DNA from: an uncultured Syntrophobacteraceae bacterium
GTDB taxonomy: Bacteria; Desulfobacterota; Syntrophobacteria; Syntrophobacterales; Syntrophobacteraceae
DNA: 64,000 nucleotides
Reading direction: 5' to 3'
NCBI GenBank assembly: GCA_964505935.1
Contig: CAZDKX010000002.1
Coordinates: 2,617-66,616, forward strand
Part shown: positions 3,697-43,908 of the stretch, piece after piece
Position numbering within the stretch: the first letter of the stretch is position 1
How the letters are laid out: every line of letters begins with the position of its first letter
Program-made: the position numbers and the translations under genes
Notes under the pieces: generated by a model
The model's database searches: none
Seen by the model: only the letters and a program-made list of their open reading frames with translations
Told to the model about the DNA's origin: nothing

Positions 3697-5443
3697 GAGG
3701 AAAAGCCGGATCGAAGGGGAAAAAAAGTGATACGGTGGTCCCGGATTGGCCATCACTATTGACATCGAGGCGCCCCCCGAGACTTACCATCAATTGATAG
3801 ACAATGCTCAACCCCAGGCCCGTCCCGGTGTTCTTGCTGGTGAAAAAGGGCTCGAAGATACGGGGGCGGTTTTCTTCGGATATGCCGTGCCCGGCATCCG
3901 CAACCTCGATCAGCGTCTGCCCGGGAGCATCCCGGCTCGCCCTGAATTCGGCCACGCGAACGCTGAGCACGCCCCCCTCCGGCATTGCCTCCAGGCCATT
4001 GGCCATGATTTGCCAGAGCACCTGCCGCAAGTGGAGAGGATCCATCCGGAAGGTGGGGGTGACCTGAAAAATCGTCTCCACCCGGTGTCCGTCAAGCAGC
4101 AGGTCTTTTGCCCGCAACTGGGCAACAACCTCCTCAACCACGGCCGGCACGCTCACCTCTTCAATTCTGGCCGATTTTTGAGAACCCCTTGCCATCCACA
4201 GAAAATCGGTGATGAGATCATCAATGCGCCGAACCTCACGGGCAATGATATTCATCAGTTTGACTTGAAAAGGTTCCTGGGCCAATTCGTGTTGCAGCAT
4301 CTGCGCGGCGCCACTGATAGCGGCCAGGGGATTTCTGATCTCATGGGCAATTTCCGCCGCCATTTTACCCGCCTGGGCCATCCGTTCGGTACGCTGAAGG
4401 TGTTCCTCCATGGCCCGCAGAGGCGTCAGGTCCTGAAAAATGAAAACCCACCCCCATCCATCTCCGCGTTCCAGATTCAATAAGGAAACGCTGTACCCCA
4501 GACACAGCTCCTCACCTGTCGGCCGCTGATAACTGAAGTCCTTACGAACCAGCGCTTCAGGCTCGGGCTGAAGCGGATGAAGGCCTGCGCAGGGCCAATT
4601 GAGGGTATTCAGGGCAGGAAAGAGCCGGTCAATGGTCCGCCCCTTAATCTGATCCCATGGCAGAGCCAAGATCTTCTGGGCCGCATCATTGGCAAAGAGC
4701 ACCTCCCGTTCGGGGCTGATCATGAGCAAACCGCTGCTCAGGCTTTGAATGACATTGCGATGGAGGATTTCGAGCTGGTGCAAATCCCGCTCTTGCTCTC
4801 GAATCTGCTGGGTGGACCGCAACCATGCTTCTGCCAGGTAGCCGGCGAGATAGGCCGTCAGATAGAAGCCGGCAATATTCATCAGCAGACTGTGAAAGAA
4901 GGCTCCACTGTCGGGAATCTGAGAGGCTATCCCCATCAGCTGAAGCGGGGCAATCCATCCAAAGTATTGCAGATCGAGCAGCAACCCGTAGGAAAGGGCG
5001 CAGGCGGACGCGACCACGACACTGCCCCGGCGATACAGCAGCAGGGCACCACTGACAATGGCGGGCATGTAGAGGAAGGAAAAGATGCTTTCCACCCCGC
5101 CTGAGAGGTAGATCAAAAAGGTCACCGCCCCCACGTCGAAAAGTGCCTGAAGATAGGCGAATTGTCTGAGTCGCCGGACCCGCTTCAGGCTCAACGCAGC
5201 GACAATCGTGAAAGCGAAAAGAATGACCGAAAAGATATAGAGAGGTCTGAGTTGTCCTGAGAGGAGGTCCTCGGCCCGCCGGCTCTGGACAATGAGGGTG
5301 AGCGTCAAGAAAAAGACGGCAAGAAGCAGTCGGAACAACAAGACTCCCTGCAGCTTGCGCTTGAGCGAAAGATCGTTGGCATCAGCCTGGACTCGGTTGT
5401 CAGGTTCTTTTCCCGAGGTCACATCAGGTTTCAAGAAGCTCAT
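3671..5443 (-). CDS. membrane sensor histidine kinase, PilS-like (polytopic N-terminus, PAS, HisKA, HATPase), 590 aa
   Basis: About 6 hydrophobic helices in residues 30-210. H-box [23 protein letters not shown]-boxes DAGHGI...[12 protein letters not shown]. Lies directly downstream of pilB-pilC, which is where pilS normally sits. Confidence 0.8.
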
Positions 5444-15997: not shown

Positions 15998-18900
15998 TCA
16001 ACGTGCCTGTTTCGCTTGCCCACTGTCCAAGGTCTCCCTGACCAGTTTGGCAAGGGTTCTCAGGGAGAGCGGCTTCATGAGAAACTTTTTGATTCCCACC
16101 CGCTTCGCTTCCTCTTCGGTAATCAGCTCACTGAAGCCGCTGCAGAGAATAATGGGAAGGTCGGGGCGGATTTTCAGGAGCTCTTTCGCCAGGTCTTTGC
16201 CGGTCATCCCCGGCATGGTCATATCGGTGATAACGAGATCGATGCGGGCGGGCTGCTCCCGAAAGATCGCCAGGGCCTCGGCACTGCCCGTCGCCGGGAC
16301 CACCTCATAGCCGAGTCCTTCAAGCATCTCCCGGCCCATATCGACCAGGATCGCCTGGTCATCCACAAACATCACCCGTTCTCTGCCTTCCGCAAGAATA
16401 GCGGCAGGGACCGCTGCTGATTCGGTCTCACGGTCGATGGCCGGGAGGTGGACGATAAAGGTGGAACCAGCACCGGTTTCGCTCTGAACGGTAATCGACC
16501 CCCCATAATCCTTGACAATGCCATAGACCACTGAAAGCCCCAGCCCGGTGCCTTCCTCCCGTTTCTTTGTGGTGAAGAAGGGATCGAAAATCCTGCCGAT
16601 GATTGCCGGTGGTATCCCCGTGCCGGTATCACGCACGGTGAGTTTCACATGCCTCCCTGGTCTCAGGTCCGGGTACAATGGGAGCATATCCGGTTTGATC
16701 TCTTCCGTGGTAAGCCTCACTTCGAGCACGCCGCCTCGCTCCCGCATGGCATGGGCCGCATTGGTGCACAGGTTCATCACAATCTGATAGATCTGGGTCG
16801 GATCTGCAAGGATGGTATCGACCCCGGCAGCGATCTGCGGGCGAATCTCGATGGTGGTCGGGAGGGTGGCACGGAGGAGTTTCAGGGCCTCCTGGATCAG
16901 GGAGCCAATGGCAATCGGCTTGACCTCTTTCTCCGCCCGGCGGCTGAAGACCAGAATCTGGGTCACCAAGTCGCGGGCCCGCTCACTGGCATTCAACACG
17001 TGGTCCAGATAGCGCTGGAGCTCTCCCTGCGGAAACTTGCGCTTGGCCATTTCCGTGTAGCCGATGATGGCCGCCAGCAGATTGTTGAAGTCATGGGCAA
17101 TGCCGCCTGCCAGGGTACCGATGGCCTCGATCTTCTGAGTCTGAATGAGCCGGCCTTCCAGCATCTTGCGCGTGGTGATGTCCTGGGCCGTACCTTCGTA
17201 GTAGAGCAGGGCCCCCTCACCGTCACGAACGGCGCGCAGGTTGAGGCTGATCCATACGACGCTTTGGTCTTTCCGATGGAACTGAACCTCGTATTCTCTC
17301 ACCACGCCCCGCTCGTCAAGCAGGCGCAGAAGTTCATCCCGGCGGGCCGGTTCCACATAGAGCTGGCGCGATAGGTCGGTCACCATCCTCATCAGCTCTT
17401 CCGGGGAATCGTAGCCCAGAATGTTGGCCAAGGCCAGGTTGGCGCTCAGGATGCGTCCTTCCCGGCTGGTCTGATAGATACCCATGATGGCGTGTTCGAA
17501 GATGCCTCGATACTTCTCTTCCGCCCGCGCCAGCGCCTCTTCGGCTTCCCGCCGTGCGGTGATGTCATGGATGGATTGAATCGCTCCGACTACCGCCCCC
17601 TTGGAGTCGCGCAAAGCGCTGGCCGTACCCCGAAGATAGGCCTTGCCCCCCCTCAGGGCAGGGATATAGGTTTCACCGGTGAGCACCGAGCCTCTCCTGT
17701 CCATGGTCACGTAACCCCTCTCCACCTGCTCATCAGGTTTCAGGACGAGGTCGATGATGATGGGTCTCCTGACTCCATAAAACGGCAGCGCATATTCGTA
17801 ATCGCCCCTGCCCAGCATGTCGGCCGCCTTGACCCCGGTCATCTCCTCGATGGCCCGGTTCCAGGCAATGACCTTGCCTGCATTGTCAATGACAAAGGTG
17901 GCGTCCGGCAGAAAATCGATGATGTCGAGCAACTGCTGTCGGGATTCCTTGAGCTCCTCCTCCGACCTCTTCGTGTTCGTGATGTCTTCGAGGGTCTCAA
18001 TAGCACCGACCATGCCCCCCTTATCGTTCCTGATGGCTGCCGCCGTGAAGCGCAGCCATTTCCCGCCCGCGCCAAGTTCAGGGAAGAAGGCCGTCGCCTC
18101 GTAAGCCTCATCCAGCAAGCTGGACTTGCTGCTCTCCCCGCCGTACCACTCGGGGATCAACGCCATGTCTTCGTCGACCAGCAAGTCCGCCATGCAGGGC
18201 CGCTGCTCCGGGTAGAACGCCTGCCACTGCTGTTCCGTGCCGACCATTTCCGCGGCCTTGAGCCCCGAGAGCTCCTCCAGGGCGCGGTTCCAATAGAGGA
18301 CCTTATGGTCCCTGTCGATGACGAAGGCCGGAATGGAGAAACCCTGGATGAAACGGTGCAGTTTCTGCTCGCTGTCCCGCAGGGCCTCCGCCGCCTGATT
18401 GCGTTCGGCAATCTCCTCGACCAGTTCCACCGTTCGCTCACGAACCCGCGTCTCGAGCTCATCGCGGGCTTCCCGCAACTCCCTTTCCGCGCTTTTGCGC
18501 CGATGCGTGTTGACAAGGAGCACCAGGATGATCAGCACCAAGCCGGCAACGCCGACAAGGACGCTCCAGACCAGCCCTTTGTTGACCGCATAGAACGACA
18601 CCGGCTCATTGATGACGACGCTGTCGGGTGGCAGGTCGGATCGCTTGATGCCGTATCGCTCCATCCACTTATAGTCGAACATATAGCGGGTCGGACACTC
18701 CCGGACCACAGGGATGCTCTCGACGCGCTCTCCCCGCAGAATCCGCAACGCGATTTGCCCCGCAAGGCGTCCCTGCTCGTAAGCACTGGTCAGCATGCCC
18801 CCGATGATGCCATGTCCCAGATCGAAGTCCCAGGTGCCATAGATCGGGACTTTTGCCGTTTGCGCGATCGCCGCCATGCTCTCATCATATTCGAATGCTC

Positions 18901-19639
18901 TGCCCTCCCGGTCGCGCGAGAAGAAGGAGTTCAGGATCAGGCTGTCCTCAGGCAACTTTGCCACGGCCTGCAGGAGTTCCGGCATCGTCAAGTCCTGAAG
19001 AAATTCGAAATGGACCCGATCCTGAAAGCGAGGGACAATCTCCATGAATTCCTCGCGAACCCTTCTGCCCGTCGTGGTCGTATCACTGATGAAAACCACC
19101 CGTCTGGTGCCGGGATGAAGCCTCAGCGCGAGCTGCAGCGTGGCCTGGAAATCAGCGCTCTCATTGATGCCGGTGTAAAGGGGCTGTCCCTTGAGGTCAT
19201 CGTCGGAAAAGAAATTCACACCGCAAAAGACCACCGGCACGCGACCGAACACCTCGTCCCGATAGCGCACCAGAAACCACAGGGCGTCGTTATCCATCGC
19301 GATGATCAAATCAAAGGGCATATTTCGGAATTTGTGCTGCAAGAGACGCTGAAGTTGTTCAAAACACTGCTCGTCACTCACCCACTTGGCACCCATGTAT
19401 TCAATGTAGAGCTTGAGCTCATCTTGGAAAGGACCCAAGGTTTCGACGGCCCCGCGAGTTTCGTCGTCGGTCCATTTGTAGCCCTGGTTATAGGAATGGA
19501 GGATGAGGACATTCTTCCTGCTGTCGGCAAAGCTGTCGGCAACGAGGGACAGCGCCACCACCAGGAAGGCGGCACCTGCCAGGAACATAGCCCTCAAACG
19601 ATACTGCCGGGGACCGTAAAGGAACATAGTCACATCCAC
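15998..19639 (-). CDS. hybrid sensor histidine kinase: periplasmic binding-protein-like domain, TM, ~4 PAS, HisKA, HATPase, REC; 1213 aa
   Basis: N-terminal TM, then NVLILHSYNQGYKWTDDETRG... (ABC_sub_bind-like). Second TM VWSVLVGVAGLVLIILVLLV. H-box GGIAHDFNNLLAAIIGYTEMA. GTGLGLSVVYGIV. REC VMFVDDQAILVDMG...DLVITDMTMPGMTG. Confidence 0.9.
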   Translation of the reverse strand: MDVTMFLYGPRQYRLRAMFLAGAAFLVVALSLVADSFADSRKNVLILHSYNQGYKWTDDETRGAVETLGPFQDELKLYIEYMGAKWVSDEQCFEQLQRLLQHKFRNMPFDLIIAMDNDALWFLVRYRDEVFGRVPVVFCGVNFFSDDDLKGQPLYTGINESADFQATLQLALRLHPGTRRVVFISDTTTTGRRVREEFMEIVPRFQDRVHFEFLQDLTMPELLQAVAKLPEDSLILNSFFSRDREGRAFEYDESMAAIAQTAKVPIYGTWDFDLGHGIIGGMLTSAYEQGRLAGQIALRILRGERVESIPVVRECPTRYMFDYKWMERYGIKRSDLPPDSVVINEPVSFYAVNKGLVWSVLVGVAGLVLIILVLLVNTHRRKSAERELREARDELETRVRERTVELVEEIAERNQAAEALRDSEQKLHRFIQGFSIPAFVIDRDHKVLYWNRALEELSGLKAAEMVGTEQQWQAFYPEQRPCMADLLVDEDMALIPEWYGGESSKSSLLDEAYEATAFFPELGAGGKWLRFTAAAIRNDKGGMVGAIETLEDITNTKRSEEELKESRQQLLDIIDFLPDATFVIDNAGKVIAWNRAIEEMTGVKAADMLGRGDYEYALPFYGVRRPIIIDLVLKPDEQVERGYVTMDRRGSVLTGETYIPALRGGKAYLRGTASALRDSKGAVVGAIQSIHDITARREAEEALARAEEKYRGIFEHAIMGIYQTSREGRILSANLALANILGYDSPEELMRMVTDLSRQLYVEPARRDELLRLLDERGVVREYEVQFHRKDQSVVWISLNLRAVRDGEGALLYYEGTAQDITTRKMLEGRLIQTQKIEAIGTLAGGIAHDFNNLLAAIIGYTEMAKRKFPQGELQRYLDHVLNASERARDLVTQILVFSRRAEKEVKPIAIGSLIQEALKLLRATLPTTIEIRPQIAAGVDTILADPTQIYQIVMNLCTNAAHAMRERGGVLEVRLTTEEIKPDMLPLYPDLRPGRHVKLTVRDTGTGIPPAIIGRIFDPFFTTKKREEGTGLGLSVVYGIVKDYGGSITVQSETGAGSTFIVHLPAIDRETESAAVPAAILAEGRERVMFVDDQAILVDMGREMLEGLGYEVVPATGSAEALAIFREQPARIDLVITDMTMPGMTGKDLAKELLKIRPDLPIILCSGFSELITEEEAKRVGIKKFLMKPLSLRTLAKLVRETLDSGQAKQAR

Positions 19640-19710
19640 GAACTCATTGGCTCGACCAACACACCAGCAGCCATGCCGGAATTATCCGTCATTACCCTGC
19701 CTTCAGAAGA

Positions 19711-21810
19711 CTATCTCCCCTCCAGGACTTTCCGGATGATTCTGGTCATGTCAGCAATGACATAGGGCTTCATGACAAACGCGCGAATCCCTTCCTCCTC
19801 GGCCTGTTTTTCGTTGATCAGCTCACTGAAGCCGGTACAGAGGATGACCGGGATATCGGGCCGGATGTTCATGAGCTCCCGCGCAAGCTCGCTGCCCGTA
19901 AGGCCCGGCATGGTCATATCGGTGATGACCAGGTCGAAGGCGTCAGGCTGGGCCAGAAAGGTCTCGAGAGCGTCAAAGCTGTTCGTTTTGACACTGACCG
20001 TGTATCCCAGAGGTTCGAGCATTTCCTTGCCCAGGTCAACCATGTCTTCTTCATCGTCGACGAACAGGATTCGCTCATGGCCGGGAAGCAACGGAGCAGG
20101 CGTTTCCGAGCTTTGGGCAATCACCTGTTCAATCCGGGGGAACAGCACCTCGAACCTTGCTCCCCGGCCAGGCTCGCTTTGAACAGTGATCGCCCCCCCG
20201 TAGCTCTTCACGATTCCCTGGACCACTGCCAGCCCCAGGCCAGTCCCTTCCCCCACTTCCTTGGTGGTGAAATAAGGTTCGAAGATTCGCTCCTGTACCG
20301 TCGCCTCCATCCCGTAACCGGTATCGCTGACCGTCAGCTTCACATAAGGGCCTGGTTGAATGTCCCACGGGCGGGAAGCGAGGGAGGCAGGGATCAGCGT
20401 CTCCGACACCCTCACCGACAGGATGCCGCCGGTGGCGCGCATGGCATGAGCTGCATTGGTACACAGATTCATCAATACCTGGTGGATCTGGGTGGGATCG
20501 GCAAGAACACTGCCCTGCTCATTATCACCGGCAAGATTGTGGCGAATTTCGATGGTGGTAGGAAGGGAAGAGCGCAGCAGCTTGAGCGCCTCTTTGACAA
20601 TGGGACCGATTTGCAGCGGTCTTCGCTCCTGCTCCCGCTGACGACTGAAGGCCAGGATCTGTTTGACCAAGTCGGTGGCCCGATGGCTGGCCTTGAGCAC
20701 CTGCTCGAGGTTGCGCCGAACCGGACTTTCCGGGGGAATCTTGGCATGGGCCATTTCCGTGTACCCCACGATGGCGGCAAGGATGTTGTTGAAATCATGG
20801 GCAATGCCCCCGGCCAGCGTGCCGATTGCCTCCATCTTCTGCGCCTGGCGGAGCTCCCCTTCGAGCTTCACCTCATGGGTGATGTCCCGGTGAATGCCGA
20901 CATAGTTGATGATTTCCCCGGAGATCTCCCGCACCGGCGAGGCCGTTGCTTCCACTTCATAGTAGGTGCCGTCCTTTTTCCTGCTGCTGTGCCGTCCCGA
21001 CCACACTTCGCCCCCCACGAGAGTCTTGCGGATTTCGGCATAGTAGTGGTCTGCGTGCTTATCACTCTTGAGCATGCGGGTGTGCTGACCGATGATTTCG
21101 CTCTTGTCATAGCCGGTCATTTGTTCGAAAGCCGGGTTGGCATATTGAATGATCCAGTTGGTATCGGTGATAAAGATGCCCTCCGCCGACTGCTCGATCG
21201 CGGTCACCAGGCGCATGCGCTCCTTTTCCACACGCCTGTGCTCGCTGATCTCCGCCTCCAGGCGGGCATTGGCCTCAGCCAGTTCGACGGTACGCTCCGC
21301 GACCCTTCGTTCCAGCTCTGCATGGATCTTTTGAAGCGCCTCTTCCGCCCTCCGGCGCTCAGCGATCTGCCTCTCGAGCTCGCGATTCTGCTCCTCCAGC
21401 GCCTTTTGAAGGCGCCGCAGCGTCAGGTGGGTGGCAATGCGAGCCAGGAGGTCCTCCGGGTCAAATGGTTTCGTGATGTAGTCCACGCCCCCCGTCTCGA
21501 AGCCTTTGACCTTGTCAACGGCCTCGTCCAGCCCGCTGATGAAAATCACGGGGATTTTACATAGTTTCTCGTCGGCTTTCAGGCGGCGGCAGACTTCATA
21601 GCCGTTCATACCCGGCATGATCACGTCCAGGAGGACCAGGTCCGGCGCTTCAATGGCCACCGACCTCAGCGCCAGTTGACCATCGGCGGCCGGGCGCACC
21701 TGATAGCCGTGATGCCCAAGAAAGTCCGTCAGCAGCTTGAGGCTGCCCGGGGAATCGTCAACAACCAGGATTTGAGCCTGGCTCTTGTCACTGCCCTTAC
21801 GACTGCTCAT
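19711..21810 (-). CDS. hybrid kinase/response regulator: REC, coiled coil, PAS, HisKA, HATPase, REC; 699 aa
   Basis: N-terminal REC ILVVDDSPGSLKLL...LVLLDVIMPGMNGYEV. H-box GGIAHDFNNILAAIVGYTEMA. GTGLGLAVVQGIV. C-terminal REC ILFVDDEEDMVDLG...DLVITDMTMPGLTG. Confidence 0.9.
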   Translation of the reverse strand: MSSRKGSDKSQAQILVVDDSPGSLKLLTDFLGHHGYQVRPAADGQLALRSVAIEAPDLVLLDVIMPGMNGYEVCRRLKADEKLCKIPVIFISGLDEAVDKVKGFETGGVDYITKPFDPEDLLARIATHLTLRRLQKALEEQNRELERQIAERRRAEEALQKIHAELERRVAERTVELAEANARLEAEISEHRRVEKERMRLVTAIEQSAEGIFITDTNWIIQYANPAFEQMTGYDKSEIIGQHTRMLKSDKHADHYYAEIRKTLVGGEVWSGRHSSRKKDGTYYEVEATASPVREISGEIINYVGIHRDITHEVKLEGELRQAQKMEAIGTLAGGIAHDFNNILAAIVGYTEMAHAKIPPESPVRRNLEQVLKASHRATDLVKQILAFSRQREQERRPLQIGPIVKEALKLLRSSLPTTIEIRHNLAGDNEQGSVLADPTQIHQVLMNLCTNAAHAMRATGGILSVRVSETLIPASLASRPWDIQPGPYVKLTVSDTGYGMEATVQERIFEPYFTTKEVGEGTGLGLAVVQGIVKSYGGAITVQSEPGRGARFEVLFPRIEQVIAQSSETPAPLLPGHERILFVDDEEDMVDLGKEMLEPLGYTVSVKTNSFDALETFLAQPDAFDLVITDMTMPGLTGSELARELMNIRPDIPVILCTGFSELINEKQAEEEGIRAFVMKPYVIADMTRIIRKVLEGR

Positions 21811-21875
21811 GTCTATCCCCTCCAGGCATCCATGGTGACCTTCTCACGGGTTTGAAGTCAGGTCGTCCCCGAGCT

Positions 21876-24800
21876 TCAATCCTCCTGCTCCAATAATCTC
21901 AGGAGGCCATGGTAATCCAGATTCTCCGTGACCGCCCGCAGGGCGGTACCCAGCAGAGCGTCTCTTTCGGAAATCCTCTCGATAACCTCCATCGTCCGGA
22001 CCATGTCCAACCGAAGCAGCGCATCATGCAGCTCCCTGCGCAACTCTCCGGGCAGCACCGCGAGTTGGGCGGCAGTCACTTCCGGTTCGGGCCGGCTGCG
22101 CTCTTCCTCAGTCTGATCCCGTTCGTAAAGATACTTCACCCCCAGGTGCTTCGCCATGAGCTCGAAGAGCTCCTCTTCGCGAAAGGGTTTGCGCACAAAA
22201 TCATCACAGCCCGCCGCCAGGATCGGCTCGCGCTCCTCCTCCAGCGCCTGGGCGGTCAGCGCGATGACTACGAGCGATTTGCCCGCCTCCGTCGCCTTGA
22301 GCCGCCGGGTCGCTTCCAGACCATTCATCACGGGCATGCGCATATCCATCCAGATGAGATGCGGCTGAAACTCCTCGAACACCCTGATCGCTTCCTGACC
22401 ATCAGCGGCTTCCCGCACTTCAAAGCCCACGTCTTCGAACAGGGTGACCATCAGCCGGCGACTTTCCTGCTGATCTTCGGCCACCAGGATGCGGGGCGTG
22501 GCTTGCCCCGGTTCCAGGCCAATGACCATGCCCTTTTGCCGCTTTTCGATGAGCTCCGGCTGAGTGCCCTCCTGGATAGCGAGTTCCAGGCGGAACGTGC
22601 TGCCTTCCCCCACCCGGCTGGTGACGGAGATGTCCCCTCCCATCATACGGGCATACTCCCGACTGATAGCCAGCCCCAGGCCGGTGCCGCTTTCGCTCTG
22701 CCTGCCGCTTGCCGCTTGTTCGAAGTACTGGAACACCCGCTCCAGTTCGTCTTCAGCAATGCCGGTTCCCGTGTCCTTCACCTCTATCACCAGGCACATC
22801 CCGGTCGGAGTTTGCTCCCTTACCGCAAGGTGCATGAAAATGCCGCCGGCCAAGGTATATTTGACCGCATTTCCCAGCAGGTTGACCAGGACCTGGCGCA
22901 ATTTGTTTTCATCCACCATCACATAGCGCGGAAGATCATTGATGCCGGTCAGCTCGAACCACAGGCCCTTGGCATCGGTCCTCACCCGAAACATGAGCTC
23001 CAGGTCCTTGAGCAACAAATGGAGATCGCAGTTACGGGGTTCGAGGGTAATCCGCTGGGCTTCGATCCGAGATATTTCCAGGACATCATTGATCAAGGCC
23101 ACCAAATGCTCCCCGCTGCGATTGATGATATGCAGGTATTCCCGCTGTTGAGGGGGCAGCGCGGAGCTTCGCTGCAACAGTTGCGAATATCCCAGAATGG
23201 CATTCAAGGGGGTGCGCAGTTCATGGCTCATGTTGGCCAGAAAGACACTCTTGGCCCTGCTGGCCGCCTCGGCCCTTTCCTTGGCAACAGCCAGCTCGGC
23301 TGTACGCTCCTGCACTTTCACCTCGAGGGAGTCGTGCGCCCGCAGCAAGGCCTCCTCCGCCTGCTTACGCTTGGAGATGTCCTCCAGCAGTGCCAGCACG
23401 TAATCCATCGTGCCATCGGGATGGCGGACGCAGCCGACTGAAAGATTCGTGAAAATCACCACCCCGTCCTTGCGGACGAACCGTTTTTCCATGGTGTAAT
23501 CGTCGATTTCCCCGGCCAGGAGTCGATCGAATTGGGCCACATCCAGCGGCAGATCATCTGGATAGGTCAGCTCCGCCCAGGTCATACCCAACAGTTCGGC
23601 TCCCGAATAGCCCAGCATCTGGCAGATCTTGTCATTGACCTGCACCCACTTCTTTTCGGGTGAGGTGATCGCCATGCCGATCAGCTGGCGCTCGAAGAAG
23701 AGGCGCATCCGCTCCTCGCTTGTTTTCAGCGCAGCTTCGGCCCGTTTGCGGCGAGTGATGTCACGGAAGAAGATCAGCGCCCCATCTTCATCGTGATAGC
23801 GGAAGGGGACCGCAGCCACCTCGACATCGATGGGGGAGCCATCCATTCTCACATAGACCTCATCGATCATCTCAACGGCCTTGCGTTCAGCAACAAGACT
23901 CTTGACCCGCTCGCGGATCAAAGCATGGAATGATGCGTGGATGCGATCGAAAGCCGAAGTCCCCAGCAGGCTGTCGGCGGAAGGTGCCCCCAGCAGGTTC
24001 ACGGCTGTCGCATTGACATAGACAAATCGGTTGTTCGTCTGGATGTAGATGCCATCGGGGGCGTTTTCGACGAGCGTGCGGAAATTCTCCTCACTCTTGG
24101 CAAGTGCCTCCTCCGCCCGTTTGCGCTCGGTAATGTCGGTCCCCACGCAAAGGATTTCCGTGAGCTTGCCCGAGGCATCCCGCACCGGTTTGTTTGACCA
24201 TGCCACCCAGATGCGCTCACCGTTGCGGCGCATGTTCTCATTCTCGCTCACCGCGTAATGCTCTGTGTTCTTCACCACATCGCTGAACAAAGCGCGAAGG
24301 TCGCGGCCCGAACTCTCGGTTTCGGGCATGATCGTGCCGACCAGATTTCTGCCGAGGATTTCCTCCTCGGCATAACCGTAGAATCGCTGGGCAAATTCAT
24401 TGAAGAAGGTGATGTTGCCCGCGGAATCGACCCGCAGGATAAGACTGTTGGCATTCTCCACGAGTTCTCGATACTGCTCTTCGCTCCTGCGCAACGCCTC
24501 GGCAGCCGACCGCCGGTGAAGGATATTCAGCATGAGAAGCACCACAAAGCCACTCAACCCCAGCAGCAACGCGGCTGTCGCCCACACGAGAGGCTGGTAT
24601 TTTTGGTAAAAGGAATCAGGGCGATTGACCAGGAGGGCACCCGGCGGAAGTTCGGAGAGGCCGATCTGAAACCTCACAAGTTGCTGATAGTCAAACATGC
24701 TCTGGTTGGCGTCCGTCCCCTTGACCACGGGAAGGTCCTCGGCCTTTTCCCCTTTCAGGATGCGGAGCGCCAACTCCGCTGCCATCCGACCCTGCCGATA

Positions 24801-25634
24801 GCCGCTCACCAGCTTGCCTCCCACAATGCCGTACCCCAAGTAGACATCCCAGAAAGAATAAACGGGGACAGCGCTGTGGCGTGAGACCCATTTCGTCGTT
24901 TCACCGTACATCAACTGGCGGCCCGTCTCATCGGTTATCAGGCCATTGAGAAACAGGAGCGAGCGTTGCCCCACTTTCTCCAGTCGCGTTCTCAATTCTA
25001 AAATCGGCAAATCATCCCAGAAAGCGACCTTTACCTGAGGAGGCAGGTCGGGTAGAGCCGCCACGAAACTGTCACGATTGTATTTGTCGGCTGCGACGGA
25101 GGTTCGCCCAACGACGATGATTTCCTCGGTGCTGGGGTGAAGCCGGAGGGCCATAATAACCGTTTCGACGATCGAAACGTCTTCAGCAACACCGGTAATG
25201 CCACGTTTTCCCAAGAGCATGGAGGGAGTAAAGTCATTGATCCCGCAAAACACGATGGGGGTATCGGGAAACAGCCGGTCACGCTCTGAAAGCACGAGAT
25301 TCAGGGCGGCATTGTCCGATACCATGACGAGGGTCGGGGCTGTCCCTTCCAGCTTTGAGAGAACCAGGTCACGAATCAGGCGGGTCCGCCCGGGATCAAT
25401 ATAGCGCCGGGCATCGAGAAACTCGGCGCTCAGTTGAACCTCGCAACCACTGCGGGAAAACGTATCGTGAATCCCGTCCATGATCGATTCGGTCCAGCTT
25501 AGGCCTGCATGGTAGGAGTGGATGACGAAAACCTGACTGTTGACCCGTGGCGAGTCCGCCGGGCTCGGAGCTGCCGCCAGCAGCGTCAAAAGTCCGATCC
25601 CAAGCGCCAGGAGCATGCCATAGCGAACACCCAT
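21876..25634 (-). CDS. hybrid sensor histidine kinase: periplasmic binding-protein-like domain, TM, ~4 PAS, HisKA, HATPase, REC, ~100-aa helical tail; 1252 aa
   Basis: Signal/TM, then [21 protein letters not shown]... (paralogous to the sensor domain of 15998-19639). H-box [57 protein letters not shown]...[13 protein letters not shown]. No HxxKG Hpt motif is seen in the tail. Confidence 0.9.
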
Positions 25635-35719: not shown

Positions 35720-36607
35720 ATGATGCGCCTCAAGTATCAAACCGCTAACTGGGTTTATGCGTGGCTGCTGCTCCTTCCCGCCTCGATCCTGATGGTGGCT
35801 TTTACCCATTACCCGATTGTGGGGAGCATTTGGGCCAGCTTTTTTTCCACCCCGCGCCAGGGCCGGGCCAGCCGGTTCGTCGGCGTGGACAACTATGTGT
35901 CGATGGTCAACGACCCCGTTTTCTGGCAGGTGCTGGCCAACAATTTTCTCTACGCCCTGGGTGCCATCCCGGTCAGCGTCTGCCTGGCTTTGCTCATGGC
36001 CGTCTGGGTCAACGGCAGACTGCCGGGCCGGGGCATTGTCCGGGCCGCCTATTTCACCCCGACCATTCTCCCGATGGTCGCCGTGGCCAATATCTGGCTC
36101 TTCTTTTACACACCTCAGATCGGCATTCTCGATCGCCTCTGCGGCCTGTTCGGAATCCCCAGCCACAGCTGGCTCGGTGACCCTGCCACCGCTTTGGGTT
36201 GCCTCGTGGTGCTGGCCATCTGGAAGGACGCAGGCTTCTTCATGATTTTCTTTCTGGCGGCCCTCCAGGGAATTTCACCCGAACTCGAGGAAGCCGCCCT
36301 CATCGAAGGGGCCGGCCGCTGGTATTTCTTTCGCCGGGTGACCCTGCCGCTGCTGATGCCGACGACGCTTTTCGTGCTGGTCAATGCTACGATCAACTCC
36401 TTCAAGCTCGTCGACCACATCTTCATCCTGACCAAGGGCGGCCCCGACAACGCCTCCTCATTGTTGCTCTACTACATCTATGAAGTCTCTTTCGGCTTCT
36501 GGGACACGGCCTACGCCTCGACCCTGACGGTGGTGCTGCTGTTGATCCTGAGCGTGCTGGCCGTCACGCAGTTTAAATACCTGGAGAAACGGGTGCACTA
36601 TCAGTGA
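35720..36607 (+). CDS. ABC transporter permease (UgpA/MalF type), 295 aa
   Basis: Six TM segments and the EAA-loop-like motif EEAALIEGAGRWYFFRRVTLPLL. Confidence 0.88.
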   Translation: MMRLKYQTANWVYAWLLLLPASILMVAFTHYPIVGSIWASFFSTPRQGRASRFVGVDNYVSMVNDPVFWQVLANNFLYALGAIPVSVCLALLMAVWVNGRLPGRGIVRAAYFTPTILPMVAVANIWLFFYTPQIGILDRLCGLFGIPSHSWLGDPATALGCLVVLAIWKDAGFFMIFFLAALQGISPELEEAALIEGAGRWYFFRRVTLPLLMPTTLFVLVNATINSFKLVDHIFILTKGGPDNASSLLLYYIYEVSFGFWDTAYASTLTVVLLLILSVLAVTQFKYLEKRVHYQ

Positions 36608-36651
36608 CGCCTGAGTCGTGAGTTTAGGGGGACAGGGGATCAGGTGGGAAC

Positions 36652-37473
36652 ATGATCATCCGAAAAGCCGACTGGGGATATTACCTGGAAACTGCGGGAG
36701 CCTGGCTGCTGGCGTTTCTGTGGGCGGCACCGCTGCTCTATGCCACGTGGGCAGCCTTTCACCCCATGGATTTCGTCAGCCGCTTCGACCTGCTCGCCCC
36801 GCTGACCCTGGACAACTTCCACTCGGCCTGGAGGGTTGCGCCTTTTGCCCGGTACTTCCTGAACACCTTCCTCCTGGTTTCCATGACCCTGACCGGCCAG
36901 TTGATCCTCTGTACTCTGGCCGCCTATGCTTTTGCCCGCTTTGAATTTCCCGGCAGGGAGACCGCCTTCATCCTCGTGCTCATCCAAATCATGATCATGC
37001 CCGATGTCCTCATCGTTCAGAACTACCTCACGACGAGCAAACTGGGCCTGGTGGACACCATCCTCGGGATTGGACTGCCCTACATGGGTTCCGCTTTCGG
37101 CATCTTCCTGCTGCGCCAGGCCTTCAAGCAGGTCCCGCGAGAACTGGAGGAAGCCGCCCGAGTCGAAGGCGCCGGCTGGCTGTCGATTCTCCTGAAGGTT
37201 TACGTGCCGCTCGCGCGACCAACCTACCTCGCCTACGGCCTCGTCTCCGTCAGCTACCACTGGAACAACTTCCTGTGGCCGGTGGTCATCACCAACTCCA
37301 CCAACACACGGCCTCTTACCGTGGGGCTGTCGATCTTCGGAGCGCCCGAGTCGGGGGTGAACTTCTCCGTCATCTCGGCCGGTACCCTTCTCGCCGTTTC
37401 CCCCCTGCTGCTTGCCTTTCTGTTGTTCCAGCGCCAGTTCGTCCAGAGCTTCATGCGTTCCGGCATCAAGTAG
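36652..37473 (+). CDS. ABC transporter permease (UgpE/MalG type), 273 aa
   Basis: EAA loop EEAARVEGAGWLSILLKVYVPLARP and six TM segments. Confidence 0.88.
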   Translation: MIIRKADWGYYLETAGAWLLAFLWAAPLLYATWAAFHPMDFVSRFDLLAPLTLDNFHSAWRVAPFARYFLNTFLLVSMTLTGQLILCTLAAYAFARFEFPGRETAFILVLIQIMIMPDVLIVQNYLTTSKLGLVDTILGIGLPYMGSAFGIFLLRQAFKQVPRELEEAARVEGAGWLSILLKVYVPLARPTYLAYGLVSVSYHWNNFLWPVVITNSTNTRPLTVGLSIFGAPESGVNFSVISAGTLLAVSPLLLAFLLFQRQFVQSFMRSGIK

Positions 37474-37688
37474 TGGTGAATATTATCCAACTCTCAGCAT
37501 GAGTGTATAATAATACCCGTATACTACTAACCTATCGACATCGTAAGGCAACTTATCCCATCCGGCCCGTTTCCGGTTATCCGGAAAGGTAATGTGGATA
37601 TTATTACTCATATTGCGCGATTCAAGAGCGACTCTTATCAGTTATGCAAGTTATTGCAATAATGCAAAAGAATCTTCTACAGTAACAA

Positions 37689-37704
37689 TGGCACATACCT
37701 TGCT
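37689..37704 (+). promoter_or_regulatory. sigma-54 (-24/-12) promoter
   Basis: TGGCACatacCTTGCT matches TGGCAC-N5-TTGCW at all conserved positions, with canonical GG-to-GC spacing. Intergenic. Inverted repeats lie upstream: TTTCCGG-ttat-CCGGAAA at 37570-37587 and TGCAA/TTGCA/TGCAA at 37645-37667. Confidence 0.7.
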
Positions 37705-37715
37705 CTAGGTAACCA

Positions 37716-38390
37716 TCGGAAGCTGCAGGGTCGTGATGAAATCTGAGTATTGCAGGGTGAATCTGAAGCTTCCGCAAGTCGCTCTTTGGCAAAATATCTA
37801 GAATGAGCCGGTTATATCCTTGTGTGCTGTTCGACTGCTCGTGATGAGAAAGCGCTGGCGGAGAGACTGGATCCCGATATTGTGATGCCGGATGTCACCT
37901 CCCTGACAAAACTGGTTTGCTCCTGCTCGAAGGGATAATTCTCAGGGGACCCTTCGACCCCGTTGTGTTGGAAGCTGTGTTGTCCTCTGCGCGCTCGAAA
38001 GCGAAATCAAGGCAGGTGTGGAATTTTCAAGGAAAGCTGAAAACCGAACCCGAAGGTATAGCAGGCTCAGTCTCCAAACAGGGAACTCTCAGAAGTAAGT
38101 GTTTCAGATTCCATGCTGAGCTCATGTGGCGGTTGCGGGTTCGACTTGAGGTTCCGGTTAATGTGAATTTTGCAGTGGCGGTTCGAGCGGTAGCGGAGGT
38201 GCTGATTTCTTGCTGAGCTGATGGTCGTGTGGAAGTTCCAGTGGAAGATCTGATACGGGGTTGCGAAATTTCAAATTCAAGCTGGTGATTGTAGCTCTTT
38301 CGAATGTCTGACTTAGAAGAAACGATCTGAGAGCCCCCCTTTCATGGCAGGAGGCTGTGGGGAACACCCTTACAGCCTCCTGTTTTTTTT
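37716..38390 (+). ncRNA. candidate ~0.68-kb sigma-54-dependent noncoding (or micro-ORF) transcript; unrecognised class
   Basis: Defined only by the promoter at 37689-37704 and the terminator at 38348-38390, with no SD-preceded ORF in between. Low G+C. Contains imperfect internal repeats. Confidence 0.3.
38348..38390 (+). terminator. rho-independent terminator
   Basis: Perfect 11-bp stem CAGGAGGCTGT / ACAGCCTCCTG with a 13-nt loop, followed by T8 (38383-38390). Confidence 0.85.
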
Positions 38391-38518
38391 GCCTCCCGAT
38401 TTTGCGTATGGTATTCTGAATCATTCGTGAACAGGGAGCTCAGTGTAACCCGGCTTGCCGGGAAGCCTGATCTGTATCGGGAGTAAGGTACGGTACGGCA
38501 CTCGGGGGGCAATCCTTT

Positions 38519-39361
38519 ATGGTTCAACCTGTGCAAGGATCGAGACAGGGGTACAGCGCCTTCATCTTCACCCTGGCTGCCCTGGCCATTGCGTTTCTCG
38601 CGTCGGGGTGTGTCACCAACCCGATTACCGGCCGCAGTCAGGCCATGATCGTGAGCGATCAGGAAGCCTCAAAAGTCTCACGGCAGGCCTATCTTCAATT
38701 GCTGTCGGCGGCCAATCGTGAGAACGCCCTGGACAGTAACCAGCAAACTTTACGCCGCGTGCGTGGGATCACGGATAGGGTTGTCGCACAAGCCATCCAG
38801 TTGCGCCCCGAGACCCGGAACTGGCAATGGGAAGTCCATGTTTTGAAAGCCAATGAGGTAAACGCTTGGTGTATGGCGGGAGGCAAGATGGCTGTCTACA
38901 CGGGTTTGCTCGAAAAGATCAAACCCAGCGACGATGAACTCGCACAGGTCATGGCTCATGAAATCTCCCATGCCCTCCTGTCGCATCAGGCCGAGAAGAT
39001 CTCCCGAGTGCAGATGCAGAGAACGGGGCTACAACTGGGAGTCCTGGTAGGGGCGATTGCGGGTTACGACTTGAGCGGGGTTGCCGGCCTGGCCGACAGC
39101 GCGGCAGCAGTCGCCTTGCAGTTACCCAACAGTCGAGAGGCCGAGCGCGAAGCGGACCAGTTGGGGATCATGCTCGCGGCGCGTGCAGGCTATAACCCAC
39201 AGGCCGCCGTTTCCCTGTGGGAGAAGATGCTGCGGTCCTCAAGCGGCGCCCCCCCCGAATGGCTGAGCACGCATCCCGACCCTGAAGCACGTGTCAGTTA
39301 CATGCGTACCTTGGCAGAAGAGTACATGCCGGTCTATCGAAGCGCTGCGGGAAAGCTGTAG
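38519..39361 (+). CDS. M48-family zinc metallopeptidase, lipoprotein (LoiP/YcaL-like), 280 aa
   Basis: Lipobox FLASGC. The HEISHALLSH zinc motif. The downstream E (REAEREAD) and family-typical WLSTHPDP. Confidence 0.88.
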   Translation: MVQPVQGSRQGYSAFIFTLAALAIAFLASGCVTNPITGRSQAMIVSDQEASKVSRQAYLQLLSAANRENALDSNQQTLRRVRGITDRVVAQAIQLRPETRNWQWEVHVLKANEVNAWCMAGGKMAVYTGLLEKIKPSDDELAQVMAHEISHALLSHQAEKISRVQMQRTGLQLGVLVGAIAGYDLSGVAGLADSAAAVALQLPNSREAEREADQLGIMLAARAGYNPQAAVSLWEKMLRSSSGAPPEWLSTHPDPEARVSYMRTLAEEYMPVYRSAAGKL

Positions 39362-39411
39362 AGGCAGCGCCCGCCCGGCATCGTCCAGCAGCACCAAAGG
39401 GAGCTCTCCTC

Positions 39412-39432
39412 AAAGGGCACGCCCTGCCCTTT
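39412..39432. terminator. stem-loop between convergent genes (bidirectional terminator candidate)
   Basis: AAAGGGCA-cgccc-TGCCCTTT, a perfect 8-bp stem with A/T-run flanks built into the stem. Confidence 0.35.
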
Positions 39433-39520
39433 GCCCCTCATAAAATGCCATAGCCTGCCGCAGTTCGGTGAACTGCTGGATGACGAAAACTGGTGACAGC
39501 CAACAGCATGACCTGGATAT

Positions 39521-42648: not shown

Positions 42649-43503
42649 CTAGGAACTGGTATACTTCTTGAGAAGGCGAAAGAGCTTGAGGGTGAGGTCA
42701 CCTGCTCTTCCCTTACCGATCTTGATCCCGTCTACGCTGTGAACACCCAGGATGTCGACCGTGGTTCCCGTCAAAAACATCTCTGCCATGAGAGGAAGAT
42801 CATCGGCCCGAATAGAGCTTTCGCGTACGACAAGACCGAGCTCCGCAGCATGATTCAACACCCAGGCACGGGTGATGCCGGCAAGAATACGGTTTGACAG
42901 CGGAGCGGTAAAGAGCGTTCCGTTCTTAACACCAAAGACGTTCGTATGCGTGCCTTCGCTGACGCAGCCGTCATCCCCCACAAAGATCGCCTCTTCCGCC
43001 CCCGCCCGCCTGGCGGCCTCCTGAGCCAGGCAGTTCGGCAGCAGGTTGACGGATTTGATGTCGCAACGCTGCCAGCGAATATCTTTAGTGGTCACGGTTG
43101 GCACCCCGACTGCTCGAACCCGTTCGTACTTGTCCGGCGGAATCTCCTGCACATAGATGAGCTCATTCGGGGCCGGGAGGGGGTCAGGAAAACAATGACT
43201 GCGTTTGGCGGCACCCCGGGTCACCTGGATATACAGCAACCCATTCCTGAAGCCTGCATGGTCGAGAGTGGTCAGCGCCCTTTGTTTCAATCGATCGAGG
43301 TTGCAGTCCATCTGAATCCCATTCAGGCTGGCCCTCAGTCGGTTGAAGTGTTCCTCCAAAAGCCAGGGCTTCCCACCGCAGGTGCGAATAGCCTCGTAGA
43401 CCCCGTCGCCGAAAAGGAACGCTCTGTCTGTGACAGGTACAAGGACTTCGTTGAGAGGCATTTCAAGGCCGTTCCAGTTTGCCAGAGGTTCGTTTCCACT
43501 CAT
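42649..43503 (-). CDS. class IV aminotransferase (D-amino-acid or branched-chain aminotransferase), 284 aa; start at the internal ATG
   Basis: VTDRAFLFGDGVYEAIR, catalytic-Lys region CDIKSVNLLPN, EGTHTNVF, and ILAGITR. GGAGGG Shine-Dalgarno before the ATG at 43503. Confidence 0.8.
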   Translation of the reverse strand: MSGNEPLANWNGLEMPLNEVLVPVTDRAFLFGDGVYEAIRTCGGKPWLLEEHFNRLRASLNGIQMDCNLDRLKQRALTTLDHAGFRNGLLYIQVTRGAAKRSHCFPDPLPAPNELIYVQEIPPDKYERVRAVGVPTVTTKDIRWQRCDIKSVNLLPNCLAQEAARRAGAEEAIFVGDDGCVSEGTHTNVFGVKNGTLFTAPLSNRILAGITRAWVLNHAAELGLVVRESSIRADDLPLMAEMFLTGTTVDILGVHSVDGIKIGKGRAGDLTLKLFRLLKKYTSS

Positions 43504-43908
43504 GGTTTGCCCTCCAACCAGATATTCAATGCCAAAGCCCCCGCCTTCGCAGGGTACTTCCAAGGTGCTGATGAGCCAAGTCCTCAATCCGGCAGCGCTC
43601 TTGGTCTGGATGCCAGGGGTTCGTTGAATACATCGGAAACATAGGATATCTCCTTTGCTGACAGGAAGCAACCCGACGGAGGCATTCAGCAGCCCCTGAA
43701 ACGGCTCAGTTCGGACCGGAGACCCGGGGAACCGGCTATGGCGCCATCAGGAAGCCCCAGCAGAAAGACGGCTTGTGAAAAGCTCGCGCATCGGCAGCCT
43801 TTCTGCTAGAATGACTTTGGCAACAGCCACGCTTCTGCAAGGGGCACGGCATCCGGTACGGCCACTCATTTTGTTGTCTGCCTGTTCACATGTTGAAGGG
43901 AAAAGTCC

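Follow-up and report, generated by a model that had tools for sequence, protein, structure and literature searches.

Several regulatory RNA genes of bacteria are sigma-54-dependent, among them those of GlmY and GlmZ and that of Pxr in Myxococcus, and the enterobacterial small RNAs CpxQ, SroC and DapZ derive from the 3' untranslated regions (3' UTRs) of mRNAs. In Geobacter, hgtR encodes a small regulator, is induced when the cells grow on hydrogen, has an RpoN-dependent promoter and its own terminator, and lies beside a putative enhancer-binding protein gene (PMC2817479). Here we analyse the spacer at positions 37474-38518 of a 64,000-nucleotide (nt) stretch of contig CAZDKX010000002.1 from an uncultured Syntrophobacteraceae bacterium (the whole stretch is called the window). 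An earlier, sequence-only reading had seen in this spacer a sigma-54 promoter and an intrinsic terminator with no credible open reading frame (ORF) between them, and had offered three explanations, namely that it specifies a long regulatory RNA, that it is a micro-peptide locus, or that it is what remains of a decayed gene whose signals were kept. The last of these is borne out, as a family of receiver proteins aligns from promoter to terminator and the window copy carries disabling lesions. We put at roughly 0.85 the probability that 37474-38390 is one whole copy, now decayed, of a conserved ~1-kb module of Syntrophobacteraceae-like bacteria, with the mechanism proposed for it below. The literature on Syntrophobacter yielded nothing specific on a sigma-54 RNA or regulator of this kind.

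The module is also present on 10 other contigs of Syntrophobacteraceae-like bacteria (11 distinct copies with that of the window) and consists of three upstream boxes, a sigma-54 promoter, a gene for a single-domain receiver of ~150 amino acids (aa), a non-coding 3' element of ~300 nt and a terminator. The three boxes, the promoter, both arms of a helix closing the 3' element and the terminator are found in 11/11 copies. In the intact copies, an NtrC-type enhancer-binding protein would bind the three boxes and, once bound, switch on sigma-54 RNA polymerase at the promoter. The resulting monocistronic mRNA would encode the receiver, which has Glu at its phospho-acceptor position, then run on into the untranslated 3' element with its long-range helix and stop at the intrinsic terminator.

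Compared with the described systems, the window unit shares with Qrr1-5 and their activator LuxO in Vibrio, with GlmY/GlmZ and with Pxr a -24/-12 promoter with probable activator sites upstream of it, a predicted transcript that is not translated, and an intrinsic terminator. It differs from them in its length (putatively ~675 nt, against ~100-200 nt), in its descent from a protein-coding mRNA, in the lack of an Rfam family match, and in that its activator is not encoded next to it. The arrangement of hgtR resembles that of the module copies that lie next to hydrogenase genes: behind an activator gene comes a monocistronic gene, driven by sigma-54, for a small regulator that lacks a sensor domain, and there is a link to hydrogen metabolism (PMC2817479). 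HgtR is, however, a ribbon-helix-helix repressor and the module protein a receiver domain, and no conserved 3' RNA element has been described for hgtR, in contrast to the module (PMC2817479). The window copy departs further from hgtR in being a pseudogene and in not lying beside hydrogenase genes. As in CpxQ, SroC and DapZ, the 3' element is a conserved non-coding stretch downstream of a coding sequence that shares the terminator of the mRNA; the likeness is positional only. The element is ~300 nt long, is closed by an invariant long-range helix and belongs to a different phylum.

The homology of the spacer emerged when the 121-codon open frame at 37851-38213 was searched exhaustively with phmmer. 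It matched a 99-aa protein (88% identical), the product of the same spurious ORF as annotated in a relative, and more weakly proteins of 83, 113 and 144 aa. The 144-aa protein begins MSAENRVLLVEDEASLRCSLIKYLERAGY..., and the window, in a different frame, reads ...VLQGESEASASRSLAKYLE*AGY.... Searching with this protein retrieved 71 relatives, mostly of 147-154 aa, all of them carrying the receiver domain PF00072. Aligned to the spacer by tblastn, a check that the sequence-only reading had named, an intact member of the family matches 37747-37905 (64% identity, E 3e-16) and 37950-38093 (75%, E 2e-17); the phmmer and tblastn matches to family members have E values of 1e-16 to 1e-17. The two tblastn matches lie in different frames, a shift explained by a 1-nt deletion after 37885. 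The contigs of nine family proteins and that of the 88%-identical relative were then examined at the DNA level. By blastn, five further loci align to the window from the promoter (37689) to the end of the terminator (38391) with 75-79% identity, and an nhmmer profile built from the whole module covers the window copy in two matches (37468-37939 and 37939-38390) that leave out only a 93-nt deletion. Pfam gave no match in any of the six frames of the spacer at E values up to 10; hmmscan fails on a remnant as badly broken as this.

Intact members of the family keep the conserved acidic pair, Ser and Lys of the receiver fold. The phospho-acceptor position corresponds in alignments to Asp54 of Spo0F and to Asp55 of DctD. 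Counted by motif across the family, it holds Glu in 69 proteins, Gly in 1 and Asp in 0, one further protein (P0003) being without the segment. Glu at the phospho-acceptor site of NtrC (D54E) is known to mimic phosphorylation. By analogy, a Glu-containing receiver would be controlled by the amount made rather than by phosphorylation, which fits its coupling to an activator-dependent promoter. The family shares the receiver fold with other aspartate-less or single-domain receivers, from which it differs in being uncharacterised and in always occurring with a sigma-54 promoter and a conserved 3' element; it is only 27% identical to the receiver domain of the module's own activator. Three of its proteins look damaged: P0003 is missing 10 residues that surround the Glu acceptor site, P0012 continues past the usual stop codon, and the ORF of P0002 begins inside the receiver and extends into the 3' element. 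Decay may be common among the dispersed copies.

Codon-by-codon comparison of the window with an intact dispersed copy (L167) locates the lesions listed in Table 1. All of them except the first TGA, that is, four of the five ORF-disabling lesions and the loss of the stop codon, are also carried by L172, a 1.36-kb contig from another sample which has the same junction with an M48 peptidase gene and is 93% identical to the window from 37761 onward. Among the coding positions that are invariant in nine intact copies, 24/150 are substituted in the window and a further 28 deleted, and 23 are substituted in L172; an earlier count with six intact copies found 23/27 coding substitutions common to the two. 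Since most coding substitutions and lesions are common to both, the inactivation must long predate their 7% split and be several times older. As read from the DNA, no receiver protein can be made from the window copy, whose frame is long destroyed. Its Shine-Dalgarno sequence is also weakened, from GGAGG to GGAAG. Two observations concern the 5' end of the transcript: in the window, a 12-bp inverted repeat (CGGAAGCTGCAG / CTGAAGCTTCCG, 37717-37774) would fold it into a hairpin, and in intact copies the Shine-Dalgarno sequence GGAGGCT can pair with AGCTTCC of codons 13-15, so that the ribosome-binding site may be occluded.

Both the promoter and the terminator claimed by the sequence-only reading are real, conserved features of the family. 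The promoter is the sole perfect TGGCAC-N5-TTGCW in the 64 kb on either strand (0.09 expected from shuffles), and in 11/11 copies TGG(C/T)A(C/T)-N5-TTGCT stands 24-33 nt before the receiver start codon, with a variable 5-nt spacer. In the window, transcription is predicted to start at ~37715. Upstream, the 11 copies share three 16-bp palindromic boxes (consensus TGnAnAATATTnnTCA) that start ~215, ~185 and ~94 nt before the -24 element. Box 1 is present at its offset in 11/11 copies and in the window opens on the first base after the stop codon of the upstream permease gene, 215 nt before the -24 element; the position of box 2 is occupied in all copies, 29-31 nt from box 1. The palindrome, in this fixed three-box layout, is probably the binding site of the enhancer-binding protein of the module. 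The two repeats that had earlier been taken for activator sites are both present in the window, the second of them, TGCAAGTTATTGCA(ATAATGCAA), at 37645-37667, but neither is a conserved site: they are degraded in the 93%-identical L172. For the palindrome at 37570-37587, a similar sequence occurs in L171 and most copies lack it. The family-wide sites are instead the three boxes of Table 1. Similar sequences occur elsewhere. In L177, one of the copies next to hydrogenase genes, two further box-like sites (L177:2052-2067 and 2174-2189) lie upstream of the activator gene (start 2367), which hints at autoregulation. Far from the module, the box consensus is matched with one mismatch at 4065-4080 of the window (- strand, TGGAGACGATTTTTCA), and a near-consensus sigma-54 site with one mismatch (TGGCACCCCGACTGCT, 43099-43114, + strand) falls inside the large ORFs 42649-43671 (-) and 42946-43644 (+).

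The non-coding 3' element spans 289-361 nt among the copies. Its first block, GGG(A/T)ACTCTCAG, lies at the stop codon or directly behind it, its last block is TCTGAGAG(C/T)CC, and these blocks, complementary and invariant in 11/11 copies, form a closing helix of 11 pairs (8+3 bp) in which 99% of cells are paired and the sole changes are from G-C to G-U. The 5' arm is conserved at the nucleotide level, because in the hydrogenase-linked copies it lies outside the coding sequence. Between the arms there is no conserved ORF, and indels are not multiples of three; interior helices show few compensatory changes and several broken pairs, and are not claimed here. Among the dispersed copies, identity is 72-87% in the 3' element against 46-71% in the upstream spacers; between L167 and L181 it is 87% in the 3' element, 89% in the coding sequence and 71% in the upstream spacers. 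At the end of the unit, the 11-bp perfect stem reported earlier is confirmed as the core of a longer, 17-pair hairpin. Across the 11 copies this terminator shows compensatory changes at 7/17 pairs, with 98.9% of cells paired, and 0/500 shuffles reach its covariation score. Searched at E values up to 1, the module yields no Rfam match in seven related loci, and in L177 and L178 the 3' elements are free of tandem repeats.

Table 1. Features of the decayed module copy, in window coordinates; L172 is the related 1.36-kb contig
Feature	Sequence or change	Position	Strand	Remark
Box 1, probable activator site	TGGTGAATATTATCCA	37474-37489		0-1 mismatch to the palindromic consensus TGnAnAATATTnnTCA
Box 2, probable activator site	TGTATAATAATACCCG	37504-37519		Two mismatches to TGnAnAATATTnnTCA; 30 nt after box 1
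Palindrome of the sequence-only reading	TTTCCGG-N4-CCGGAAA, TTTCCGGTTATCCGGAAA	37570-37587		Partly conserved only
Box 3, probable activator site	TGGATATTATTACTCA	37595-37610		94 nt before the -24 element; offset conserved in all copies
Sigma-54 -24/-12 promoter	TGGCAC-ATACC-TTGCT, TGGCACATACCTTGCT	37689-37704	+	Only perfect match in the window
Receiver-domain (REC) gene remnant, pseudogene		37729-38099	+	phmmer, tblastn, codon-by-codon alignment
Start codon lesion	GTG to GGT	37729-37731	+	Shared with L172
Stop codon in frame	TGA	37744-37746	+	Window lineage only
Stop codon in frame	CGA to TGA	37804-37806	+	Shared with L172
Frameshift	1-nt deletion	after 37885	+	Shared with L172
Deletion	93-nt deletion	after 37938	+	Shared with L172
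Closing helix, 5' arm	GGGAACTCTCAGA	38081-38093	+	Overlaps end of former coding sequence; complementary to 38326-38338
Interior of 3' element	G+T-rich, no ORF	38094-38325	+	Length 211-282 nt among copies
Stop codon lost	Stop codon to AAG	38097-38099	+	Shared with L172
Closing helix, 3' arm	TCTGAGAGCCCCC	38326-38338	+	Pairs with 38081-38093
Intrinsic terminator	17-pair hairpin (38346-38384), then T8	38346-38390	+	Covariation across copies

The copies occur in two kinds of surroundings. Those of one group (group B; L173, L177, L178, L179 and L180 as DNA, and P0033 from its gene table only) have the order activator, receiver, [NiFe]-hydrogenase. Their activator is of the NtrC type, with a receiver, a sigma-54 interaction domain and in most an HTH_8 match, and the module begins right after its stop codon; on the 3' side follow a ~58-aa ORF (4/5 DNA loci), the small and large subunits of the hydrogenase and, in four, a HycI-type protease. 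The dispersed copies (L167, L171, L174, L181, and the window with L172) lie between unrelated genes without an adjacent activator. The position beside the uptake-type [NiFe]-hydrogenase is likely the ancestral location of the module. Two of the dispersed copies, L167 and L174, seem to keep remnants of the 3' end of the activator gene upstream of box 1. In both the window and L173, the module starts on the base after a stop codon, and the last codons are alike: the permease ends ...TCCGGCATCAAGTAG|TGGTGAATATT (window 37456-37490, SGIK*) and the L173 activator ...CTCGGCATTGAATAG|TGCCGAATATT (L173:3722-3760, LGIE*). The SGIK* ending is native to the permease, as L087 and L089 end likewise, and the likeness of the two ends may be due to chance or to microhomology that served in the insertion. 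The ~58-aa ORF between the module terminator and the hydrogenase genes is conserved (L173:4886-5062, L179:4890-5066, and the C-terminal parts of L177:4758-5150 and L180:4816-5154) with the pattern M..K...L.K..EKGM.V.EAA..IGFD..LL.LYL..D.YPVP.RI..KL.; it has no Pfam match and does not occur in the window.

According to Pfam, the spacer of the window is bounded by an ABC permease gene (36652-37473, + strand) and an M48 peptidase gene (38519-39361, + strand). Its G+C content is 48.3% against 58.7% for the whole window, ranging along the spacer from 0.40 to 0.50 with flanks at 0.58-0.65. The drop noted earlier after the permease stop codon is thus real (126/300 on recounting 37501-37800, where 127 had been counted, and 36/60 for 37381-37440). 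It is also true that no credible ORF is present: the sole + strand frame of at least 60 codons from promoter to terminator is a 99-codon TTG frame (37917-38216), and third-position G+C (GC3) is 0.48-0.55 in the spacer frames against 0.81 in the adjoining genes, so that no frame bears the signature of the host. A permissive Rfam scan of 36500-39500 (E up to 10) gave chance matches outside the spacer and none inside, in agreement with the earlier failure to recognise an Rfam class, and a distant blastn search of a plasmid collection with the spacer gave no match. The internal direct repeats proposed in the sequence-only reading do not hold up: they are short, 76-85% alike and at about chance level, and Tandem Repeats Finder likewise returns weak two-copy matches. 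GGA motifs number 15 against 13.1 expected and AGGA is not enriched, so that the motif enrichment of a protein-sponge RNA of the CsrB/RsmZ type is absent. Folded alone, the 3' element has a z score of -1.4 against shuffles.

Synteny was scanned at 80 genome loci via the M48 peptidase and at 80 metagenome loci via the ABC permease. The nearest M48 homologues among the former (78-86% identical; a metagenome-assembled genome (MAG) of an uncultured delta-proteobacterium and a Syntrophobacteraceae MAG) have other upstream genes and no similar spacer, and the nearest permease homologues among the latter (84-93% identical) are followed by other sequence, with no similar DNA. Since the closest homologues of neither neighbour carry similar DNA, the spacer marks a break in synteny rather than an intergenic region conserved with one gene or the other. 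The same-species contigs L001-L006 are uninformative, being 99.6-99.8% identical with an identical M48 protein; the spacer is without a called gene on any of them.

These data bear on several other explanations. The spacer might belong to the transcript of a neighbour, either as a long leader in front of the M48 peptidase gene or as the 3' UTR of the ABC transporter operon before it, as all three lie on one strand and the permease stop codon is not directly followed by a terminator. A strong terminator nevertheless separates the module from the M48 gene, the module is seen with six different neighbour pairs, and it is absent beside the closest homologues of either gene, which makes this highly improbable. 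Several short ATG frames of 10-30 codons are present, one of which would be the product of a micro-peptide locus, but they lack a Shine-Dalgarno sequence, are not conserved across the copies, contain indels that are not multiples of three, and show neither a GC3 signal nor a Pfam match in six frames; we give this proposal of the sequence-only reading still less weight. Least credible of all is a stand-alone sigma-54-dependent RNA gene, small or long, that never encoded a protein. Such a gene would account for a promoter-plus-terminator layout without an ORF and for the empty Rfam scan, and it is refuted by homology to the receiver family, with which the body of the unit aligns codon for codon, recognisable lesions included. 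The long regulatory RNA suggested earlier therefore fails as a de novo RNA gene and survives only in modified form: a former mRNA may have become an RNA-only transcript, in which the old 3' UTR is the conserved part.

For the decayed module copy, the mechanism proposed is that an activator encoded elsewhere in the genome, when active, would fire the sigma-54 promoter of the window and yield an untranslated RNA of ~675 nt (~37715 to 38390), the last 310 nt of which would be the helix-closed element and the terminator. Because boxes, promoter, helix and terminator are intact, we infer that the unit may still fire whenever the activator is active; binding of the activator to the boxes, transcription, and any role of the RNA are deduced from these signals. 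Several points weigh against this reading. The case for transcription of the window unit consists of its intact signals. The activator is absent from the 64-kb window, as had been stated earlier: there is no GAFTGA or Walker motif of a sigma-54 activator, and tblastn with the family activator matches receiver domains only. The whole putative transcript is not unusually stable when folded against shuffles (z +0.65 on the + strand, -0.22 on the - strand), and the closing helix shows invariance only, with no covariation in 11 copies. The remaining points against it concern the retention of the signals: the counts are small; taking as reference the invariants of the four closest copies (group A), the 3' element (27/183 changed) and the dead coding part (47/284) have changed equally fast; and the upstream part of the test is confounded, because recombination may have re-imported good boxes and promoter. 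From 37474 to 37760 the window diverges by 31-35% from L172 (L172:171-457), against 7% elsewhere, and the left-hand gene of L172 differs. The simplest explanation of this pattern would be a past recombination or crossover between two module copies that rearranged the chromosome.

Two views of the present state of the copy compete. According to one, the unit is an inert relic, a functionless pseudogene whose signals have not yet decayed and which is possibly untranscribed, the activator being absent or never active at this copy; we consider this close to an even chance. The two mismatches in box 2 and the weakened Shine-Dalgarno sequence are in keeping with it, as are the group-A comparison and the 7% divergence of remnant and 3' element from L172, which equals that of the M48 gene, as neutrality predicts at short distance. 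It fits less well with the deeper invariants. At positions invariant in nine intact copies, the window is substituted at 3/79 non-coding against 24/150 coding positions (Fisher p = 0.005), where at the 16% coding rate ~13 changes would be expected, and the 3' element and terminator alone give 1/44 (p = 0.019 in the same test). The alternative is that the unit was exapted as an RNA-only unit, its boxes, promoter, 3' element and terminator having been kept by selection after the death of the ORF; it would serve either to make the 3' RNA element, which could act, for instance, as a regulatory RNA of the 3'-UTR type, or to titrate the activator. It refines the preferred explanation of a decayed module copy rather than excluding it, and we hold it somewhat short of even odds. 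Besides the deep invariants, it draws on the fact that the pseudogene is older than the split from L172 and yet both lineages retain intact -24/-12 bases, helix arms and terminator stem, that the 3' element of intact dispersed copies is nearly as conserved as the coding sequence and far more so than the upstream spacers, and that conservation of the first helix arm does not depend on whether the coding sequence includes it. Against it stand the small numbers, the possible refreshing of the upstream part, the interior of the 3' element, which changes as fast as the dead coding part, the lack of covariation in the closing helix and the weakly supported interior helices; no target or partner was found, and a duplex search of the 3' element against hydrogenase leaders did no better than shuffles and is uninformative. 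We accordingly hold only tentatively, and with slight doubt prevailing, that an RNA or control region here is still under selection, as an RNA-only unit or as an activator-titrating site. The more specific proposal that the ~300-nt 3' element is an undescribed regulatory RNA under a hydrogenase-linked NtrC-type activator, and that the window copy is kept only to make that RNA, we regard as unlikely.

The feature in the window is ordinary in kind, and gene decay explains the puzzle of a promoter and a terminator with nothing between. Its interest may lie in the possible RNA-only persistence of a dead copy and in the uncharacterised regulatory module that it exposes in syntrophic or sulfate-reducing Deltaproteobacteria, comprising an enhancer-binding protein, its probable binding site, a receiver with a phosphomimetic Glu that is expressed from a sigma-54 promoter, and a conserved 3' RNA element. 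The exhaustive protein search recognised a relic that Pfam, Rfam and synteny had missed. Were the dead copy still transcribed, it would provide a clean natural case of an mRNA gene becoming a non-coding RNA gene, and, since the 3' element occurs here without the protein, a direct way to study what that element does.

At L167:7854-7927 (+ strand), upstream of an SBP gene, there is a weak, sub-threshold RsmY-like Rfam match (21 bits, E 0.39) that is unrelated to the module. In the window, the - strand of 15998-25634 carries ORFs of 1213, 699 and 1252 aa, and tblastn with the receiver domain of the activator matches 16061-16381, 19720-20076 and 21370-21774; these large ORFs thus contain receiver domains and probably encode hybrid signalling proteins.

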